From NCBI GenBank assembly GCA_041659205.1, contig JBAZYS010000005.1, positions 1-57,719 on the forward strand: a stretch of 57,719 bases of DNA. Direction: 5' to 3'. The stretch comes from Minisyncoccota bacterium (GTDB lineage Bacteria > Patescibacteriota > Minisyncoccia > Phycocordibacterales > UBA9973). The notes below the pieces were generated by a model that ran no database searches, was not told the DNA's origin, and saw only the letters and a list, made by a program, of their open reading frames with translations. Shown one piece after another: positions 19,658 to 38,562 of this stretch; position 1 is the stretch's first letter; each line of letters begins with the position of its first letter. A program made the translations under genes and the position numbers.

Positions 19658-19730
19658 GCCGCTGTAGCTCAGGTAGTAGAGCAACGAATTCGTAATTCGT
19701 GGGTCGGATGTGCAAGTCATCCCAGCGGCT
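19658..19730 (+). tRNA. tRNA-Thr (CGT)
   Basis: GCCGCTG/CAGCGGC acceptor; ACGAA-TTCGTAA-TTCGT; atypical T-loop TGCAAGT. Confidence 0.88.
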
Positions 19731-19731
19731 C

Positions 19732-20619
19732 ATGGAAAAAGACATCAACGATATTGATAGGAAAATAGAAGAGCTGGAAGTATCTATGCAGATGCCGGAA
19801 TTTTGGAATGATAAAAATAAAGCCCAAGCAATAATAAAAGAACTCACAGAGTTAAAAGAAAAAAAAGAGGGTGTTGGAAAATATGATAAAGGGAATGCTG
19901 TTGTCACAATAATTTCTGGTGCGGGCGGGGATGATGCAGAAGATTTTTCTGCAATGTTGCTCTCAATGTATTTGAAATATGCAGACAAACATGGCTGGGG
20001 GATTTCTTTTATTCATGAACACAAAAATGAGCATGGAGGATATAGAAATGTTTCTTTTGAAGTTCAGGGCAAAAACTCATACGGTATTTTAAAAAATGAA
20101 GGAGGGGTCCACAGACTTGTACGTATTTCACCCTTTGATGCAAAAAAATTACGGCATACTTCTTTTTCAATGGTAGAAGTTTTGCCTAAATTTTCTAAAC
20201 TTGAAGAAAGAGATTTTGTTATCCCAGAAGCTGATTTGAAGATAGAATATTCTAAGTCAGGCGGTCCTGGAGGGCAAAATGTGAATAAAAGGGAGACGGC
20301 CGTTAGGCTCGTCCATATTCCTACTGGAATTGCAGTACATGCTTCAAATGAGCGTTCTCAAGAGCAAAACCGCGAAAGAGCGATGGCTATTTTACTTGCA
20401 AAAATCTTTAAAAAAGCACAGGAGGACAAGAAAAGCATGGAAGAAAGCTTAAAATCAACTAAAAATACCGAGATAGAATGGGGGAATCAAATTCGTTCAT
20501 ATGTATTGCATCCTTATAAAATGGTAAAAGACCATAGGACTAATATTGAAACTTCAAATGTTGATGCCGTGCTTGATGGGGACTTGGATATTTTTATTGA
20601 GGGAGAGAAAAATTTGTGA
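19732..20619 (+). CDS. prfB: Peptide chain release factor 2 (short form, 295 aa)
   Basis: SPF (RISPFD) and GGQ motifs, WGNQIRSYVLHPY; true start probably ATG 19732 because the longer ORF overlaps the tRNA. Confidence 0.92.
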   Translation: MEKDINDIDRKIEELEVSMQMPEFWNDKNKAQAIIKELTELKEKKEGVGKYDKGNAVVTIISGAGGDDAEDFSAMLLSMYLKYADKHGWGISFIHEHKNEHGGYRNVSFEVQGKNSYGILKNEGGVHRLVRISPFDAKKLRHTSFSMVEVLPKFSKLEERDFVIPEADLKIEYSKSGGPGGQNVNKRETAVRLVHIPTGIAVHASNERSQEQNRERAMAILLAKIFKKAQEDKKSMEESLKSTKNTEIEWGNQIRSYVLHPYKMVKDHRTNIETSNVDAVLDGDLDIFIEGEKNL

Positions 20620-25761: not shown

Positions 25762-26322
25762 ATGAAAAAAAATCTAAAAAAATTTAATCCTGATAAAATT
25801 GCAGAAATAGATTCAAAGATGTGGCAAGCATATTATAATCATAATTTTTTTAAATTATTTATTTTATTATTACGTCTTAACCATGAATTTTTCGAATTAG
25901 GTTATTTACATACACTACAAGCTTCATATTATTCTGCTTATGCTGCAATTAATTTTCGTCTTAACAGAGGGAAAGAAGATTCTAAAAAAATAATCAAAAA
26001 ATTGGAAAAATTCTTTAAAATAATATCGAATAATAATATTGATAAATTTGATTATAAAAAAGCAGCTGAATTAGAATTTGGCTGGTGGATGATTGACCGT
26101 TATCCAAAACTCTACCAAATTTCACGAGAAGAAGGACTCGCACGTGCCATGGCAGCAATATACGGCATGGACTATTTAAAACTTACAGAATATGCAAATT
26201 ACCGAGCTCAAGCTATGGTATTACAAGATGAAGCAGAAGTTACTCTACAAGAGGCTAATTGGGATAAAATTAGGTCTTTATTGAAACAATCTTATAATTC
26301 ACTTTATAAAAATGTTCAATAA
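25762..26322 (+). CDS. Hypothetical helical protein
   Basis: Long ORF with host-like codon usage; MWQAYY and WWMI motifs. Confidence 0.7.
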   Translation: MKKNLKKFNPDKIAEIDSKMWQAYYNHNFFKLFILLLRLNHEFFELGYLHTLQASYYSAYAAINFRLNRGKEDSKKIIKKLEKFFKIISNNNIDKFDYKKAAELEFGWWMIDRYPKLYQISREEGLARAMAAIYGMDYLKLTEYANYRAQAMVLQDEAEVTLQEANWDKIRSLLKQSYNSLYKNVQ

Positions 26323-33957: not shown

Positions 33958-34002
33958 ATATGATATAATTTTATTAGGTTTTATTATTAAATAATTAAAA
34001 GT

Positions 34003-34038
34003 GCGTCTCGCTAATTTGACGATTGCGCGACGTGATTT
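34003..34038 (+). promoter_or_regulatory. 36-nt conserved 5' UTR motif, copy 1
   Basis: 27/36 ungapped identity to 35313-35348. Confidence 0.6.
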
Positions 34039-34048
34039 CGCAAAATCA

Positions 34049-34114
34049 ATGGGAAAAGGAAATAATGCTTATAGAAAGGACGTAAAAAAGCCTAAAAAAG
34101 CAAAGAAGAAATAA
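34049..34114 (+). CDS. 21-aa Lys-rich peptide MGKGNNAYRKDVKKPKKAKKK; not in the ORF track
   Basis: Lies between TGATATAAT (33961-33969) and a strong terminator. Confidence 0.55.
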   Translation: MGKGNNAYRKDVKKPKKAKKK

Positions 34115-34116
34115 AT

Positions 34117-34151
34117 AAAAAAATCCTGAGCCTCAAACTCAGGATTTTTTT
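34117..34151 (+). terminator. Intrinsic terminator
   Basis: Perfect 14-bp stem AAAAAAATCCTGAG/CTCAGGATTTTTTT. Confidence 0.8.
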
Positions 34152-34167
34152 ATGCTATAATTAATTT

Positions 34168-34620
34168 ATGACTAAACAGAAAATAATTATAGGTATTTTT
34201 ATTGCAATTATTATTTTGATTCTTGTTTTTATTGCATTCAGAACAAATAGAAAAGTTCCAAAAGAGGTTAACACAACAAAAACTGAAGATGTAGTAATAA
34301 CACCGACGGAGAACCCAACAATTAAACAAACAGAATTTGGCGAGCTAGTTTCACTTAAATTAAACGATAGTGTTACTTTTTCTGATGGTCTCAATATTGT
34401 TTTAAAAGAAATAAATGATTCACGCTGTCCGAAAGGAGTAGAATGTATTTGGGCGGGAGAAATTTCTGGATCTTTTGCTTTGTCTGGGGCAGCACTTTCT
34501 TCCCCTGGAGAATTTCGTTTAGGAAGTCTTAATAAAAAAAGTGTAGTTTTGGATGGTTACACATTTTCATTAAAAAATGCTACAGAAAATACTTTGAACA
34601 TTGAGGTTCTAAAAAATTAA
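34168..34620 (+). CDS. Membrane-anchored hypothetical protein
   Basis: N-terminal TM; DSRCPKGVECIWAGE motif. Confidence 0.75.
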   Translation: MTKQKIIIGIFIAIIILILVFIAFRTNRKVPKEVNTTKTEDVVITPTENPTIKQTEFGELVSLKLNDSVTFSDGLNIVLKEINDSRCPKGVECIWAGEISGSFALSGAALSSPGEFRLGSLNKKSVVLDGYTFSLKNATENTLNIEVLKN

Positions 34621-34627
34621 AAGAAAA

Positions 34628-35233
34628 ATGCTACATTTTGATAAAAAAGAGTTAGCGTTGATAAAAAAATTAAACACCCCAGCAAAAGTTCAAAATTTTT
34701 TAAATGGACTTAAGTTTAATTTTGAAAAAGATAAAAGGCAGACCTTGAAATCACCCCTTATGGTTTTAAGAGCAAAAAATGCACATTGTGCAGAGGGAGC
34801 GATTCTAGGTTCCTATATTCTCTCTACTCATGGATTTAGGCCCTATCTAATGCATCTAAAGACCACAAAAGGGGATTATGACCATGTGGTCGCTCCGTTT
34901 AAAGTACGGGGCTTCTGGGGTGCATTATCAAAAACAAATCATGCAGTCTTACGTTACCGAGAGCCAATATATCCCAATATCCGCGCACTTGCATTGTCAT
35001 ATTTTCATGAGTATTTTTTAGATAATGGGTTGAAAACTTTAAGGCAATATTCTGAACTTCTGGATTTGAATACCTTTGAAGATAATTGGATGTTGATGGA
35101 AGGAGACCTTTGGGGGATAGATCAGGAATTAGATAAAATAAAGCATTATGATATTGTACCTAAAACTTATATTAAGAAATTACGTAAAGCAGATAAAATT
35201 GAGATTAAGGCAGGGAAAATAAAAGAATATTAG
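34628..35233 (+). CDS. Conserved hypothetical protein, possibly transglutaminase-like
   Basis: AHCAEGA and DHVVA could provide Cys/His catalytic residues. Confidence 0.65.
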   Translation: MLHFDKKELALIKKLNTPAKVQNFLNGLKFNFEKDKRQTLKSPLMVLRAKNAHCAEGAILGSYILSTHGFRPYLMHLKTTKGDYDHVVAPFKVRGFWGALSKTNHAVLRYREPIYPNIRALALSYFHEYFLDNGLKTLRQYSELLDLNTFEDNWMLMEGDLWGIDQELDKIKHYDIVPKTYIKKLRKADKIEIKAGKIKEY

Positions 35234-35312
35234 ATATTGTAACAATTTGCCCTTTTATCCGTCTTATATTATATAGTGAGTCGTTTCACTTGTATTATTA
35301 AAATTATTAACA

Positions 35313-35348
35313 GCGTCGCGCTTTAATGACGGTTGCGTGACATAATTT
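35313..35348 (+). promoter_or_regulatory. 36-nt conserved 5' UTR motif, copy 2
   Basis: GCGTCGCGCTTTAATGACGGTTGCGTGACATAATTT, ending 15 nt before ATG 35364. Confidence 0.6.
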
Positions 35349-35363
35349 CAGGTAATTAAAATT

Positions 35364-36068
35364 ATGAAAACAAATAAATTATATTATGTTTTAGGATCAA
35401 TGTTGATATTAAGTAGTTTAGCTTTCTTCGGTTATGCATCAGCAGATAATGATAAGAGTAACGAAGATCGAGGTAAAAGTGAACAATCAAAAGAAGCACA
35501 CATGAGAGGCTCTACTCTTGAGGTTCATATTTCAGACAAAGGGAAAGTAGATGTTCGAGGGGCAAAGGTAACAGCAATATCAGGTAATGTTATCACTGCG
35601 TCTACCTCTTGGGGTGTAGCTAATCTAGTATGGTCAGTGAATGTATCATCAGATACTAACATAGTTAGACTATATGGAGGGAAAAGTTTGGTTTCAGAAA
35701 TTTCTGTTGGAGACTTTGTAAGTTTCAAAGGAAATCTAGTTACTACTTCTGCTTCACCAATTATAGTAAATGCTACTATGGTAAAAGATTGGTCAATTCA
35801 AGTTAGGAATGCAAGTTTTAATGGCACAGTAAAAAGTGTTGATGTTCCTAATAGTAAATTTGTATTTAGTTTTAACAAAAATGGTGATATAACAGTAACA
35901 ACTTCTGCTTCTACTAAATTTACAAAAGGAGAGGTGGCGGGAGTATTTGCGGATGTTATAGTTGGTGCAAAAATTTCAACTAAAGGACTTTATGATTCCC
36001 AGTTGAAACAATTAAATGCGAGTGAGGTTAAAGTGAAGATTCCTGAAGTAGTTAGTTTAAATCATTAA
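35364..36068 (+). CDS. Secreted protein with repeated OB-like domains (DUF5666-like)
   Basis: Signal peptide; two GxVxxV...T...(F)xxxxVG...V.G repeats. Confidence 0.7.
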   Translation: MKTNKLYYVLGSMLILSSLAFFGYASADNDKSNEDRGKSEQSKEAHMRGSTLEVHISDKGKVDVRGAKVTAISGNVITASTSWGVANLVWSVNVSSDTNIVRLYGGKSLVSEISVGDFVSFKGNLVTTSASPIIVNATMVKDWSIQVRNASFNGTVKSVDVPNSKFVFSFNKNGDITVTTSASTKFTKGEVAGVFADVIVGAKISTKGLYDSQLKQLNASEVKVKIPEVVSLNH

Positions 36069-36115: not shown

Positions 36116-37870
36116 TTATAAATTAAAAATATTTGTCAATAATCTTACGAACCAGCTTTCCTGAGAAGGCTCCACTTTTGTGGTGGGCGGAGGTATTTTT
36201 TCTGTATTTATTGGTGTAGTTATAATTATAGGTGTGTTTTTTTGTTTTTTTACAAATTTTTTCTGGACTTTAGTTATTTCTTGAATTTTAGGTTTTTCAA
36301 ATTTTTGCATTATTTGATTCCAAGTTTTACTAGATAGTATTGAGGAGACATAAGCAGTTTCCCAAATTTTAGTATTTATGTTCTCGTTCTTTATTCCACC
36401 ATCTATATCTTGGATTGTAGCGAGATAATCAAGGGGAGTATTGTCGCCCCTTTTCCAATCTTCAGGCTTTTCACCAAGGGCCGTAATACCTTCTAAAGCC
36501 CAGGCAGTAGAAGAAGCATTGCCCCAACCACCATTTTCTTTCTGTTTTTCTCTTAAGAAGTTTTTAGCTTTTTCTAAACTTTCCCCTATCAGAGGGGTAG
36601 GGGAAAAAGGGGAAAGGGCTTCGATGGCTGCACCCGTCATATCTACTGATTCATCAAAAGATCCGTTTTCCTTCTGACGGCTTAGAATAAAAGAAATGTC
36701 ATCGTTTATCATTTTTTCGTCTTGTGTATATCCTGAACTTTGTAAAACAATTAGAGCAAAAATATCATCATTGTCTTCATTTGCATCACCAAATTGTTTT
36801 CCATCAAAGCTTGTTATTATTTTTTCAATATAGTTTTCATTGTTTGTATTGTAGGGATTTAATCCGAGCGAAAGGAGAGCCATCGCATGTCTTTCGTTGT
36901 CAGTCAAAGACATGCCTTCTGTTTTATTCTCTACTGCATATCTAACCAATTTTATTGTTTGGTCTTGGTAATTACTGGAAGCAAAAGCGAGAGTTGCCCA
37001 ATCTGTATAAATATCCTGACCGAAAGAGCCGTTTTTTTCTTGCTGGGTGATTAAAAAATCAAAAGCTTTTTTTAGGTCAAATTTTGTTTTTTCAACAGTA
37101 ATAGGAATGATTTCTTGAGAAATTGGCGTACTTGATGGTTCATTAATAGGAATACTTCCACTCCCTCCTCTTGTTTCTGCTGGGGGGGTAGAGATTTGAA
37201 TATTTACATTGTTAGATGGCACACGTAATGTTTTACTGCCGATAGCATTTAATGAACCAGCTGTATTTAAAACTATAAAGCAAGTTCCGTCAGTGGCTGT
37301 GGTGCAAGTTTGAGTTCCAAGTGTAATTGTGGCTTCAGAGGATGGAGTCCAAAGCATATTATAATTTGCATCAAAGGTGCTTTCTTCTTCTGCAGTAAAT
37401 GTTATGGTGTCACCGATTATTCCAGAACTTTTTGAGGCTGAAATACGTAGTGGATAAGAATTGTAAGTTAAGAGAAGTTCTTCTCCGCTAGAAAGAGAGT
37501 GCTGATTAAGTCCAGTTCCTCCCAAGCTTAGATTATTAAACCAACTCCAAAATTTTGAAAAATCAGGAGTAGTTGTATATCCACTAAGTTCGTTCAACCA
37601 TCCACTTGGAGCATAATTCCAAGTCCAAGTATTTGATAATGCAGGTACGACTTGCTCTATGGCGCATTTACCATTTATGGTGATAGGTGCATCAGGGGCT
37701 GGTGATTCGGCACAAGCTGTAACTGTCTCTGGCCCATTAAATATAACAGTATCATCTGCATAAATTTTTAGAATTATGTTTACAGAATTATCCGCTAAAA
37801 CAATTTGTCGTGTAGAGAAAAACAATATAACTAATAAAACTACTTTTGAAATCTTTTTTATATTTTTCAT
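36116..37870 (-). CDS. Secreted protein: DUF4430-like beta domain + Ig-like domain + prenyltransferase-type alpha/alpha toroid (transcobalamin-like)
   Basis: Signal peptide; FWSWFNN...G......LSSGEELLLTY; four QW-like repeats (FLITQQEKNGSF, ILSRQKENGSF, FLREKQKENGGW, YLATIQDIDGG). Confidence 0.78.
   Translation of the reverse strand: MKNIKKISKVVLLVILFFSTRQIVLADNSVNIILKIYADDTVIFNGPETVTACAESPAPDAPITINGKCAIEQVVPALSNTWTWNYAPSGWLNELSGYTTTPDFSKFWSWFNNLSLGGTGLNQHSLSSGEELLLTYNSYPLRISASKSSGIIGDTITFTAEEESTFDANYNMLWTPSSEATITLGTQTCTTATDGTCFIVLNTAGSLNAIGSKTLRVPSNNVNIQISTPPAETRGGSGSIPINEPSSTPISQEIIPITVEKTKFDLKKAFDFLITQQEKNGSFGQDIYTDWATLAFASSNYQDQTIKLVRYAVENKTEGMSLTDNERHAMALLSLGLNPYNTNNENYIEKIITSFDGKQFGDANEDNDDIFALIVLQSSGYTQDEKMINDDISFILSRQKENGSFDESVDMTGAAIEALSPFSPTPLIGESLEKAKNFLREKQKENGGWGNASSTAWALEGITALGEKPEDWKRGDNTPLDYLATIQDIDGGIKNENINTKIWETAYVSSILSSKTWNQIMQKFEKPKIQEITKVQKKFVKKQKNTPIIITTPINTEKIPPPTTKVEPSQESWFVRLLTNIFNL
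36583..36603. repeat. Degenerate 21-bp palindrome copy inside the CDS
   Basis: CCCCTATCAGAGGGGTAGGGG (18/21) with TTT/AAA flanks like the 47792 copy. Confidence 0.6.
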
Positions 37871-37885
37871 TTCTTTTAAAATTAA

Positions 37886-38341
37886 TTAATAATTAAACTT
37901 TTCATACTTCCAAGACACAACGTCACCCCCTTTAATTTTATAATCTGAAACACCAATTTGAGCCTTAATTCCATTTACATAATAAATCCAGTTTTTTTCT
38001 CCGTTTCCTTTTATTCCATTAATGGAAACTATAAATTTCCCAATTCCTGCATAGTTTTTTTCTGTAAAGTTTATTTTTCCTTCGCTCCGAAGCTTATCCA
38101 TAAAATCGTAAACATTTGTTATTCCTAGGACTGTGCCTTCATAGCGTTTATCATTTATCTCTAAAATAGTTTTTATATTTGTGGATTGAGTATTTTCTGT
38201 ATTTGAAGCATTATTAAACACTTTTTCTTGAGGGAGTATTATTTTTTGTTTTTCAACCCCGTAGAAGAATAGAAAAGATACACTTAAAAAAGCCAAAAGA
38301 GTTATGATTATTATTTTGTTTTTTGTTGTTAATTTTGACAC
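37886..38341 (-). CDS. Membrane-anchored DUF4430 (transcobalamin-like C-terminal domain) protein; GTG start after the attenuator
   Basis: GKFIVSING...NWIYYVNGIKAQIGVSDYKIKGGDVVSWKY motif; N-terminal TM. Confidence 0.85.
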   Translation of the reverse strand: MSKLTTKNKIIIITLLAFLSVSFLFFYGVEKQKIILPQEKVFNNASNTENTQSTNIKTILEINDKRYEGTVLGITNVYDFMDKLRSEGKINFTEKNYAGIGKFIVSINGIKGNGEKNWIYYVNGIKAQIGVSDYKIKGGDVVSWKYEKFNY

Positions 38342-38369
38342 AAAAAAATTCTGTTTAGAGCAGAATTTT
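38342..38369 (-). terminator. Riboswitch-controlled attenuator
   Basis: Minus strand AAAATTCTG-CTCTAAA-CAGAATTTT plus T-tract; its CTGCTC is complementary to GAGCAG at 38395-38400. Confidence 0.8.
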
Positions 38370-38388
38370 GGGGCCCTCAAAAAAGAGG

Positions 38389-38506
38389 GAGATCCTGCTC
38401 GGGATTAATGAAATGATTGGTGTTCGGACTTGTTCCCTCCACCTGTTGGTGTTCGGGACTTACCGTAGCGGCACTGTACTGGAATCTAACCAGTTTCCCC
38501 AATCAA
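38389..38506 (-). ncRNA. Cobalamin riboswitch, compact variant
   Basis: Minus strand TGATTGG-GGAAACTGG-TTAGATT-CCAGT-ACAGTGCCGCTACGGTAA...AAGTCCGAACA-CCAATCA...GAGCAGGATCTC. Confidence 0.88.
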
Positions 38507-38534
38507 TTCTTATAATTTTCAAATGAACTCTCTT

Positions 38535-38562
38535 AGTATATACTTAGATTACATTATGTCAA
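38535..38562 (-). promoter_or_regulatory. Promoter of the riboswitch operon
   Basis: TTGACA-16 bp-TATACT on the minus strand. Confidence 0.6.

Follow-up and report, generated by a model that had tools for sequence, protein, structure and literature searches.

Two similar strings of 36 nt stand ahead of two genes in the window, the 57,719-nt stretch of a 716-kb Candidatus Nomurabacteria genome that was analysed here, and the question raised by this locus is what such a sequence does in front of a start codon. The first-pass annotation regarded the pair as either a new cis-regulatory RNA or a transcription-factor operator. The question touches on a more general open question, namely how translation starts on operon-internal genes in bacteria that lack an anti-Shine-Dalgarno (anti-SD) sequence.

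The two copies in the window

The strings at 34003-34038 and 35313-35348 are identical at 27 of 36 positions (counted by hand), and a scan of the window with a degenerate 29-nt pattern returns these two sites and no others, with 0.00 expected from 100 shuffles, which bears out the match and the coordinates reported earlier. The reported distances from the strings to the ATG codons at 34049 and 35364 are also correct; the full unit is longer and reaches the start codon. This unit comprises 48 nt and two hairpins. The first (hp1) is GC-rich, with a stem of 7 bp, a loop of the form ...GGACGRUU and a stability of about -11 kcal/mol, and is followed by a single purine linker; the second (hp2), UGAUUU-YGYN-AAAUCA, is weak and A/U-rich and ends at the ATG. 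The variable 4-nt middle described in the first-pass annotation corresponds to the 5' portion of the hp1 loop, and the GGA of this loop is not universal, as both window copies have UGAC.

Copy 1 occupies 34001..34051 of the + strand (66.5 bits with the covariance model R1; the consensus structure is from RNAalifold). Its hp1 has a stem of 34005-34011/34025-34031 and a loop of 34012-34024, followed by the linker G34032 and by hp2 (34033-34038/34043-34048, loop CGCA), and the ATG at 34049 is flush with hp2, with zero spacer. Copy 2 occupies 35311..35361, also on the + strand (51.7 bits), with an hp1 stem of 35315-35321/35335-35341 and a variant hp2 in which AUAAUUU (35342-35348) pairs with AAAUUAU (35359-35365) across a 10-nt loop, such that the 3' strand overlaps the first two bases of the ATG at 35364. 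When folded alone, the window copies are barely more stable than their own shuffles (z of -1.7 and -1.9); the structural support comes from the family as a whole and not from these two copies.

Copy 1 lies in a short putative transcription unit served by the extended -10 promoter TGATATAAT (33961..33969, + strand), which is located 34 nt upstream of the 36-nt motif and is kept in relatives without the element. Directly 3' of the copy is the gene of a conserved lysine-rich peptide of 21 aa, MGKGNNAYRKDVKKPKKAKKK (34049..34114, + strand), which shows 81-88% nucleotide identity in the genomes G103, G121 and G102, is also found in translatable form in the relatives' loci L225, L244 and L286, and matches no Pfam family. 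The gene is followed by a hairpin at 34115..34153, to which no strand is assigned; it is called on the minus strand by the terminator scan, and the A and T runs on its two sides make it terminator-like in both directions. This hairpin ends the transcription unit, which measures about 175 nt. Copy 2 precedes the gene of a 234-aa secreted protein (35364..36068, + strand) with a weak, sub-threshold match to DUF5666. In G000, the genome of the window, copy 2 sits downstream of a neighbouring DUF553-like gene; in 80 of 80 loci of relatives that contain this gene the corresponding position is without the element, and in the four of these loci that were read the sequence downstream looked different, so that the gene order there probably differs.

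The window copies do not correspond to a known RNA class among those searched. Rfam 15 gives no match over the element at the gathering score or at E<=10, and nothing relevant at the non-genic copies; ARAGORN detects nothing tRNA-like at either window copy. Additionally, hp1 is followed by RUGAUUUCG and not by a U tract, and the terminator scan skips hp1 and calls the hairpin at 34115-34153.

Covariation, distribution and turnover of the family

The covariance-model search for further instances covered 101 genomes of the genus Candidatus Nomurabacteria, of which 39 yielded about 209 matches, with 1-21 copies in each; 99 distinct copies were examined. The genome that contains the window (G000) carries about 12-13 copies by model R1. 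Elsewhere in the order the element occurs in 10 of 150 genomes, with copies in 10 other families, and in the remainder of the class it is found in 0 of 145. The earlier proposal of a new cis-regulatory RNA thus holds as far as a structured and apparently undescribed element in 5' leaders is concerned; it does not hold for a regulator of two genes, because the element is a dispersed repeat.

Both stems keep their pairing by compensatory change. At nine of the 13 base pairs both partners have changed, which amounts to 77 cells as compared with 16 in shuffles, and 96.6% are paired, as compared with 22-49% for slid partners. The same two hairpins are obtained when RNAalifold is applied to a plain MAFFT alignment. 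In other families of the order the hp1 stem is swapped outright (UAUCUC/GAGAUA, GUCACCUC/GAGGUGAC), whereas the loop GGAC and hp2 are kept. A seventh hp2 pair, between the linker purine and the base after hp2, was considered and rejected, being unpaired in 78 of 99 copies. The mutually exclusive pairings suggested in the first-pass annotation are not borne out by covariation: where the 5' GUC has become GCC the 3' strand has become GGC, yet the loop remains GAC in 23 of 24 copies.

The pattern of changes does not by itself point to folding of the sense RNA. Covariation is mostly split by subfamilies, as at one pair that is UA in 67 copies and CG in 29. Among the non-Watson-Crick cells of the sense strand in the genus set, A-C (30) outnumbers G-U (9), although the copies are not independent; this excess does not favour sense-RNA folding. 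A hand count in the order-level set gives 3 G-U and 3 A-C.

The family is dispersed and patchy, with a high turnover between close relatives. In the closest relative, G396, the element is missing at 7 of 7 matching sites, the flanks of which are 68-92% identical, and the genes served by the element vary between genomes. Additionally, five copies are nested inside the hp1 loop of another copy, which together with the absences in G396 indicates that the element behaves as mobile. At the seven aligned filled and empty sites, 5-13 nt of spacer are replaced by the element, and neither a target-site duplication nor terminal inverted repeats are seen. At rpsS, one distinctive variant of the element is common to four genomes, which suggests retention through speciation.

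Placement at start codons and a possible role in translation

The most distinctive property of the family is its position. An ORF starts 0-2 nt after the element in 63 of 99 copies, whereas the figure for 1980 positions chosen at random in these loci is 9.2%, and 82 of the 83 starts within 9 nt of an element are ATG. The element is upstream of the start codon and co-oriented with it in 83 of 99 copies, and the opposite arrangement, with the start codon at the hp1 side, is essentially not seen. The flush start is kept even where the upstream spacer measures 30-90 nt, and it is also found at the peptide gene, at nusA and at a 163-aa gene, for which element-free relatives have leaders of 28-45 nt. 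Whether or not the element is present, orthologues have the same N-termini (GyrB MAKEK, NusA MLDIK, peptide MGKGNN), which indicates that the ATG after the element is the native start.

For 44 of the 99 copies, a co-oriented ORF on the upstream side stops 0-19 nt before the copy. The element therefore takes up most of the spacer in these cases and lies between operon genes, where a separate promoter would not fit. The genes downstream belong to more than 40 unrelated families of very diverse housekeeping function with no common pathway, and include rpsS, rpsE, rpsL, rpsG, rplB, secY, recA, gyrB, atpD and nusA. Among the copies for which a -10 box could be spotted by eye, the distance from the box to the element is roughly 4-34 nt. 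At the gene of a 186-aa membrane protein (C1:212004) the GCGUC of the element starts 6 nt after TATAAT, which would place hp1 at or near the 5' end of the transcript there; in the G396 orthologue the -10 box is followed by 6 nt and the ATG.

The host provides a particular setting for such an element. The 16S rRNA tail is GGAAUAAUUCAAUUUGAAA, which is without CCUCC and invariant in the 30 genomes of the genus in which the tail was read, and GGAGG is found upstream of only 4 of 514 starts. Loss of the anti-SD has been published for a subgroup of Parcubacteria (PMC9297842), a paper in which the word "leaderless" is absent. A full-text literature search for "Parcubacteria" with "leaderless" returned no paper, and a limited search of the literature returned no description of the element or of leaderless initiation in Parcubacteria. 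In the host genome, 41 of 685 ORFs have an exact TATAAT whose last base is 6 nt from the ATG, and many genes have a -10 box placed as for an mRNA that would start at the ATG and thus be leaderless. Two tRNA genes adjoin an ATG directly, which makes processed mRNAs with a 5'-terminal AUG plausible in this host. Hairpins ending near the ATG are depleted genome-wide, the opposite of what a general rule of a hairpin before the ATG would give, and such a rule was rejected.

In view of the position and polarity of the element at the ATG, in a host with neither anti-SD nor SD sequences, an action at the RNA level on translation start is proposed. The element would be transcribed together with the downstream gene, has spread in the manner of a mobile repeat in Candidatus Nomurabacteria and related families, and would act on translation after being cleaved or bound. 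Two routes can be envisaged. The element may direct a cut at the 3' foot of hp2, which would leave a leaderless-type 5'-AUG and would be a hairpin version of tRNA punctuation; alternatively, the AUG may be presented at the end of the helix, such that ribosomes adapted to 5'-terminal AUGs could start on internal or leadered cistrons. hp1 lies about 18 nt or more upstream of the ATG, and about 18 nt upstream is the approximate edge of the ribosome footprint. A co-transcribed cassette that acts at translation start by processing or by start-site presentation is given a probability of roughly 45%. The stronger claim, that the element is a genuine translation-start device, i.e. a portable hairpin punctuation or IRES-like cassette that turns internal or leadered cistrons into leaderless-type ones and has spread because it confers expression beside an ATG, is less likely than not.

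Two known systems resemble the proposed cassette. In mitochondria, the ribosomes of which use 5'-terminal AUGs, tRNA punctuation yields leaderless mRNAs, and a structured RNA adjoins the start, often together with a preceding stop. The element likewise is flush with the start, often with a preceding stop and in a leaderless-type host, in which the two tRNAs mentioned above adjoin ATGs in the same way; it differs in that it is not tRNA-like (by ARAGORN, for the window copies) and in that it is a mobile repeat and not a gene. The rpsA leader of E. coli supports SD-less initiation by consecutive GGA-loop hairpins that extend up to the AUG, and is highly expressed, autoregulated and S1-dependent. 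The element shares with it the hairpins directly upstream of the AUG, a GGA-containing loop and the lack of a usable SD, whereas rpsA is a single leader, and the element is dispersed before unrelated genes with a GGA that not all copies possess.

The family offers a concrete, sequence-defined candidate for how operon-internal genes are started in such bacteria, with about 209 matches, a covarying fold and a sharp position at the ATG. The element might mark translation starts in a manner that is new, or might be no more than a mobile repeat that is well tolerated.

Alternative explanations

The main alternative, somewhat less probable, is that the element is a selfish DNA repeat of the MITE or REP type without host function, the hairpins of which are needed in single-stranded DNA for mobilisation, and which prefers, or is tolerated in, the few free bases before the starts of a compact genome. 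The patchy multi-copy distribution, the seven empty sites in G396, the variation in the genes served, the nested copies, the subfamily-wise covariation and the A-C excess are all consistent with this explanation. Additionally, G396 carries an unrelated 124-nt palindromic element between ftsW and murG that is also flush with the murG ATG, and flushness may thus reflect the mode or place of insertion of such repeats. However, the orientation of the element is tied to the gene, and hp2 is flush with the ATG despite the 28-45 nt of leader on offer. A structured insert at the starts of ribosomal protein genes, secY, recA and gyrB should be costly, the more so as the genome avoids structure there, and the different families of the order have the loop GGAC and hp2 in common, with a changing hp1 stem. 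Y1 transposase genes, which accompany REPs elsewhere, are common in the genus, yet are not co-distributed with the element: Y1_Tnp (PF01797) matches 76 of the 101 genomes and 28 of the 39 that carry the element, and has no match in G109, which carries 13 copies, or in G062 and G032. A Y1/RAYT transposase was therefore rejected as a partner.

Comparison with known repeats gives a similarly divided picture. The REP, BIME and REPIN sequences of Enterobacteria and Pseudomonas are short, GC-rich, imperfect extragenic palindromes with tens of copies per genome, which are co-transcribed, patchy and compensatory in their stems; they are usually found downstream of genes, either in both orientations or arranged as inverted pairs, have a conserved 5' tetranucleotide and are accompanied by a RAYT (Y1) transposase. 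The element is also a patchy, multi-copy, extragenic imperfect palindrome with compensatory stems, but it is single, co-oriented with the downstream gene, ends at the ATG and has a second conserved hairpin, without co-distribution of Y1_Tnp. As with MITEs, presence and absence are polymorphic at orthologous sites, whereas the terminal inverted repeats and target-site duplication of MITEs are lacking at the seven sites; the two hairpins are independent and do not form one pair of termini. Correia elements (CREE/NEMIS) of Neisseria are small mobile repeats that are often inserted near gene starts; they form structures in the mRNA with which they are co-transcribed, and can influence its processing and expression. 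They measure 100-150 bp, are bounded by terminal inverted repeats, show a TA duplication, and are recognised by RNase III in the form of a single long hairpin. The present element resembles them as a small mobile repeat close to gene starts, and differs in its 48 nt, its two separate hairpins, the lack of a visible duplication and its flush position at the ATG. Rickettsia palindromic elements are likewise repeats with a hairpin fold that have multiplied in a reduced genome, where essential genes tolerate them, but they lie inside coding sequences and are translated, whereas the present element lies outside, at the start codon.

Even if the element is only a selfish repeat, these organisms tolerate a structured insert flush with the start codons of essential genes. 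The element would then help to trace recent changes between the genomes of close Nomurabacteria, and would serve as a caution to annotators that such repeats can be misread as operators or riboswitches.

A role as an mRNA stabiliser or insulator is improbable. hp1 would here block 5'-to-3' or 5'-end-dependent decay of the downstream message and 3'-to-5' decay of the upstream one, with no direct role in initiation, which is consistent with the stability of hp1, with its location at or near the transcript 5' end at C1:212004 and with the 44 copies between cistrons. Such a function does not require the hairpins to adjoin the ATG, nor a second, weak hairpin with a conserved sequence, and the variable distance from the -10 boxes spotted by eye indicates that hp1 is often not 5'-terminal.

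The two remaining readings are largely refuted. That mutually exclusive pairings make up a ligand-sensing riboswitch or attenuator is very improbable; although a structured leader without an Rfam match would suit this reading and the CGUC and GACG repeats could in principle form an alternative pairing of 4 bp, changes in the 5' strand are not matched by the loop GAC, no pathway is common to the downstream genes, the sites are not conserved at orthologous genes, no U-tract terminator is present, and an element of about 48 nt, 26 of which are taken up by two simple stems, has no evident ligand pocket. Least probable of all is a DNA operator (CGTC-N10-GACG or two palindromes), which is suggested by the two adjacent palindromes near promoters in the window but is contradicted by compensatory changes that keep pairing rather than half-site sequence, a fixed orientation relative to the gene, a variable -10 distance, nearly half of the copies inside operons with no promoter nearby, and gain and loss between close relatives.

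Several other candidate signals and partners were also considered, and most were rejected. The loop GGACG could pair with CGUCC in AAACGUCC, which follows the conserved 16S tail in G000; this pairing is a coincidence, as the stretch differs in the element-bearing G102, G109, G018 and G063 and CGUCC is absent from the entire 16S rRNA of five relatives, and the element has no SD-type complementarity to the 16S 3' tail. A sigma-70 promoter within the element with a transcription start at the ATG is not supported, as positions -12 to -7 read TTCGCA or similar (by inspection). CsrA has no match above the cut-off in G000, and the Com zinc-ribbon regulator encoded in the window occurs in only 4 of 101 genomes and is lacking in G018, which has 21 copies of the element; no co-distributed protein was thus found among the candidates Y1_Tnp, CsrA and Com. 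The AAAUCA box of hp2 may be a general start signal: AATCA, the last bases of hp2 as DNA, is enriched 3-4 nt before ATG codons in the host genome (26 cases). However, TATAATCA promoters account for 10 of these cases and the element itself for 4, and the remaining cases are at most about 2-fold over background by a rough estimate.

Structure and distribution of the repeat

The first-pass annotation had reported a 36-nt motif in two copies; both strings are present, at 34003 and 35313, and agree at 27 of 36 positions (hand count). A degenerate 29-nt pattern recovers these two sites and no others in the window, where shuffles expect 0.00, and a relaxed pattern adds a third copy in the source genome and approximately 13 in relatives. 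When the copies are lined up, the likeness extends 3' beyond the motif and reveals an element of approximately 48 nt that forms two hairpins. The GC-rich hairpin 1 has the stem GUCGCGC/GCGCGAC and a loop of 11-14 nt ending in GGACGRUU, and it is joined through a single purine to the A/U-rich hairpin 2 (UGAUUU-YGYN-AAAUCA), which is followed by the ATG of a real gene. Copy 1 (34001-34051, +) precedes a gene for a 21-aa peptide, with zero spacer between hairpin 2 and the ATG at 34049. Copy 2 (35311-35361, +) precedes the gene for a 234-aa secreted protein and contains a variant hairpin 2 (AUAAUUU, a 10-nt loop, AAAUUAU), the 3' strand of which takes in the first two bases of the ATG at 35364.

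Folded singly, each 36-mer is only a little more stable than its own shuffles (z of -1.7 and -1.9), so the structure is not proven by the two window copies alone. Among 99 distinct copies, base pairing is kept in 96.6% of cells and falls to 22-49% when the partners are slid, and RNAalifold returns the same two hairpins from an unfitted MAFFT alignment. Double-sided changes occur at 9 of 13 pairs (77 cells versus 16 in shuffles, with none of 500 shuffles reaching that count), largely between subfamilies (GUC/GAC versus GCC/GGC; UGAUUU/AAAUCA versus UGAUUC/GAAUCA), such that the cell counts overstate the number of independent events. Other families of the order carry a wholly different hairpin 1 stem (UAUCUC/GAGAUA, GUCACCUC/GAGGUGAC, GAUCGCCC/GGUGCGAU), and the loop GGAC and hairpin 2 are retained. 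A seventh pair in hairpin 2 is unsupported across copies. A-C mismatches versus G-U pairs on the sense strand number 30 versus 9 in the genus set and 3 versus 3 (hand count) in the order-level set, and the folding strand is thus not told apart by the wobble test.

The covariance model and genome searches that had been proposed yield many further copies in the genus and order. The model, built from 17 copies, detects 12-13 in the 716-kb source genome and approximately 209 matches in Candidatus Nomurabacteria (39 of 101 genomes, 1-21 per genome). Copies are also found in other genera of the order (10 of 150 genomes, ten families). The remainder of the class, sampled with 145 genomes, has none.

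Position at start codons and the translation context

In 63 of the 99 copies an ORF starts 0-2 nt after hairpin 2, and in 83 it starts no more than 9 nt after it; a start within 0-2 nt is seen at 9.2% of 1980 random positions in the same loci. ATG accounts for 82 of these 83 starts, and the reverse layout, with the start codon against the hairpin 1 side, is essentially not seen among the copies. The downstream genes, named by reading their N-termini (the Pfam scan covered window genes only), are genuine and diverse: they serve translation (rpsG, rpsL, rpsS, rpsE, rplB, rplI, tsf, argS, leuS), transcription and RNA or DNA processes (nusA, pnp, recA, gyrB, HU), secretion and the envelope (secY, secE, secDF, murG, ftsW) and other functions (atpD, tkt, folD, msrA, tgt, xth, glutaredoxin, copA, pseudopilins and small membrane proteins). 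The same N-termini occur in orthologues without the element, which indicates that the adjoining ATG is the native start. For 44 of the 99 copies, the distance to the end of a co-oriented ORF upstream is 0-19 nt, and the element therefore fills the intercistronic spacer; with upstream spacers of 30-90 nt, the ATG is still flush with the element. At the 21-aa peptide gene, nusA and a 163-aa gene, the element lies at the ATG end, and element-free orthologues have leaders of 28-45 nt.

Two copies in the source genome do not precede genes, and each caps a long hairpin: one (C1:179254, region 179200-179360) is antisense in the lepA-ftsB spacer, and the other (C6:25955, region 25900-26080) lies upstream of ftsK. 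The 24-30-bp arms differ in sequence among copies with complementarity kept, and the same arrangement is present in relatives (loci L133, L135 and L116). These copies contain a conserved bulge region, ...GUUCUCGGCYCGUCRGCCUCGAAACCCC, and have no relevant match in Rfam.

The 16S rRNA end, ...GGUCGUGGAAUAAUUCAAUUUGAAA, is invariant in the 30 genus genomes with tails read and contains no CCUCC; a Parcubacteria subgroup has been described as having lost this anti-Shine-Dalgarno sequence (Tsurumaki et al. 2022, PMC9297842). In the source genome, the tail reads GGAAUAAUUCAAUUUGAAA in place of GGAUCACCUCCUUA at a contig end (C3, locus L148) that holds the last ~510 nt of the 16S; the sequence beyond it diverges into a spacer hairpin, and the remaining 16S is absent from the assembly. 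Only 4 of 514 starts are preceded by GGAGG. The profile upstream of starts shows T-12, A-11 and T-7 with G at -14, and 41 of 685 ORFs have an exact TATAAT that ends 6 nt upstream of the ATG, on which basis many mRNAs would start at the ATG. Additionally, two tRNA genes directly abut an ATG, and excision would leave a leaderless mRNA: tRNA-Thr in the window (19658-19731), followed by the ATG at 19732 of an ORF of >130 aa (MEKDINDIDRKIEELEV...), and tRNA-Gly elsewhere in the source genome (C2:61266-61337). Across the genome, perfect hairpins with an end no more than 10 nt from an ATG are depleted; the element is thus an exception, yet one that is tolerated at essential genes.

Turnover between relatives and possible partners

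The closest relative reached, G396 (flanks 68-92% identical), is without the element at all 7 alignable sites. At a 186-aa gene, this relative has the leaderless layout TGGTATAAT, 6 nt, ATG, and in the source genome the element separates the -10 box from the ATG; the pattern at gyrB is similar, in a second relative (G019) too. At argS, 13 nt are replaced by the element, which gives the upstream gene a new stop codon. No target-site duplication is visible at the aligned sites, where a spacer of 5-13 nt is replaced instead. Five copies are nested within the hairpin 1 loop of another, including one before nusA in the source genome. Around the gene next to copy 2, none of the 80 loci from relatives has an element at the corresponding position; the peptide gene of copy 1 has an element of a different subtype in two other lineages and none in G396 and three further relatives (G102, G103 and G121). 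A distinctive variant at rpsS is common to four genomes, which suggests long retention there. In the source genome, rpsS (C6:4517), rplI (C4:60898) and atpD (C8:8653) show AAAATCA, 2-4 nt and ATG without hairpin 1; the full element is present in relatives, and these sites may be decayed copies that kept the ATG-proximal part.

ORFs of the Y1 transposase family (Y1_Tnp, PF01797; ~210-270 aa) occur in 76 of the 101 genus genomes (up to 13 per genome; one at C6:9111-9383 in the source genome), with no co-distribution with the element across the 101. CsrA is absent, and the Com zinc-ribbon regulator encoded in the window is found in only 4 of 101 genomes. The complement of loop GGACG lies right after the conserved 16S tail in the source genome; this pairing was rejected because the stretch varies between genomes and five relatives have no CGUCC in their 16S. 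If a partner exists, the likelier candidates are universal components, the ribosome or a housekeeping RNase for example.

Possible roles and neighbouring features

The element is a mobile-type repeat, and its strict polarity and flush placement tie it to where the downstream gene begins. Our favoured but tentative reading, with a probability of roughly 0.45, is an RNA-level role at translation start. The transcript would be cut at the foot of hairpin 2 to leave a leaderless-type 5'-AUG, with the hairpin playing the part that tRNAs play in tRNA punctuation, or the AUG would be presented at a helix end to ribosomes adapted to 5'-terminal AUGs. Leaders of 0-5 nt are usually still classed as leaderless in Mycobacterium studies, and the 0-2-nt mode between element and ATG falls inside this range.

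The main rival, a selfish repeat that can insert or survive only in the bases preceding an ATG, is a serious possibility in view of the rapid turnover of copies and of an unrelated 124-nt palindrome (arms CCCGTTAGAAGC.../...GCTTCTAACGGG) that is also flush with the murG ATG, in the ftsW-murG spacer of G396 (C1:83343-83466, locus L308). A pure mRNA stabiliser fits less well and appears improbable. The first-pass annotation had suggested a new cis-regulatory RNA or operator with mutually exclusive pairings. Its novelty is upheld, in that neither motif string matches Rfam 15 by gathering score or at E<=10; the alternative pairing of the 5' GUC with the loop GAC is contradicted by a loop that is still GAC in 23 of 24 copies with 5' strand GCC, which leaves a riboswitch very improbable, and a transcription-factor operator fits slightly worse still.

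No description of the element was found in Rfam 15 or in the literature searched. It resembles REP/MITE-like structured repeats, and its position right against start codons, in a lineage that lacks Shine-Dalgarno pairing, is an unusual trait that is possibly functional.

The lysine-rich 21-aa peptide gene behind copy 1 (34049-34114; MGKGNNAYRKDVKKPKKAKKK) is served by a promoter and a terminator of its own, belongs to no Pfam family, and is 81-88% identical at the nucleotide level in three relatives versus 70-74% for its neighbours; it is also found in at least three more. On the minus strand, a cobalamin riboswitch (38398-38548; RF00174, 38.3 bits) lies upstream of ORFs of 164 aa (37886-38380) and 584 aa (36116-37870). 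Elsewhere in the source genome, the box ATTTAACAGGGTG lies ~45 nt before the ATG of rpsS (C6:~4470), rplI (C4:~60850) and a 715-aa gene (C2:~157725), and could serve ribosomal-protein genes as a promoter or operator. All genomes compared share, upstream of nusA, a promoter followed by a conserved T-run hairpin (GAGTCCTGTCAGAACAGGGCTTTTTT; C2:25650-25700, and loci L138, L142, L056, L064, L084 and L107) that looks like an attenuator.
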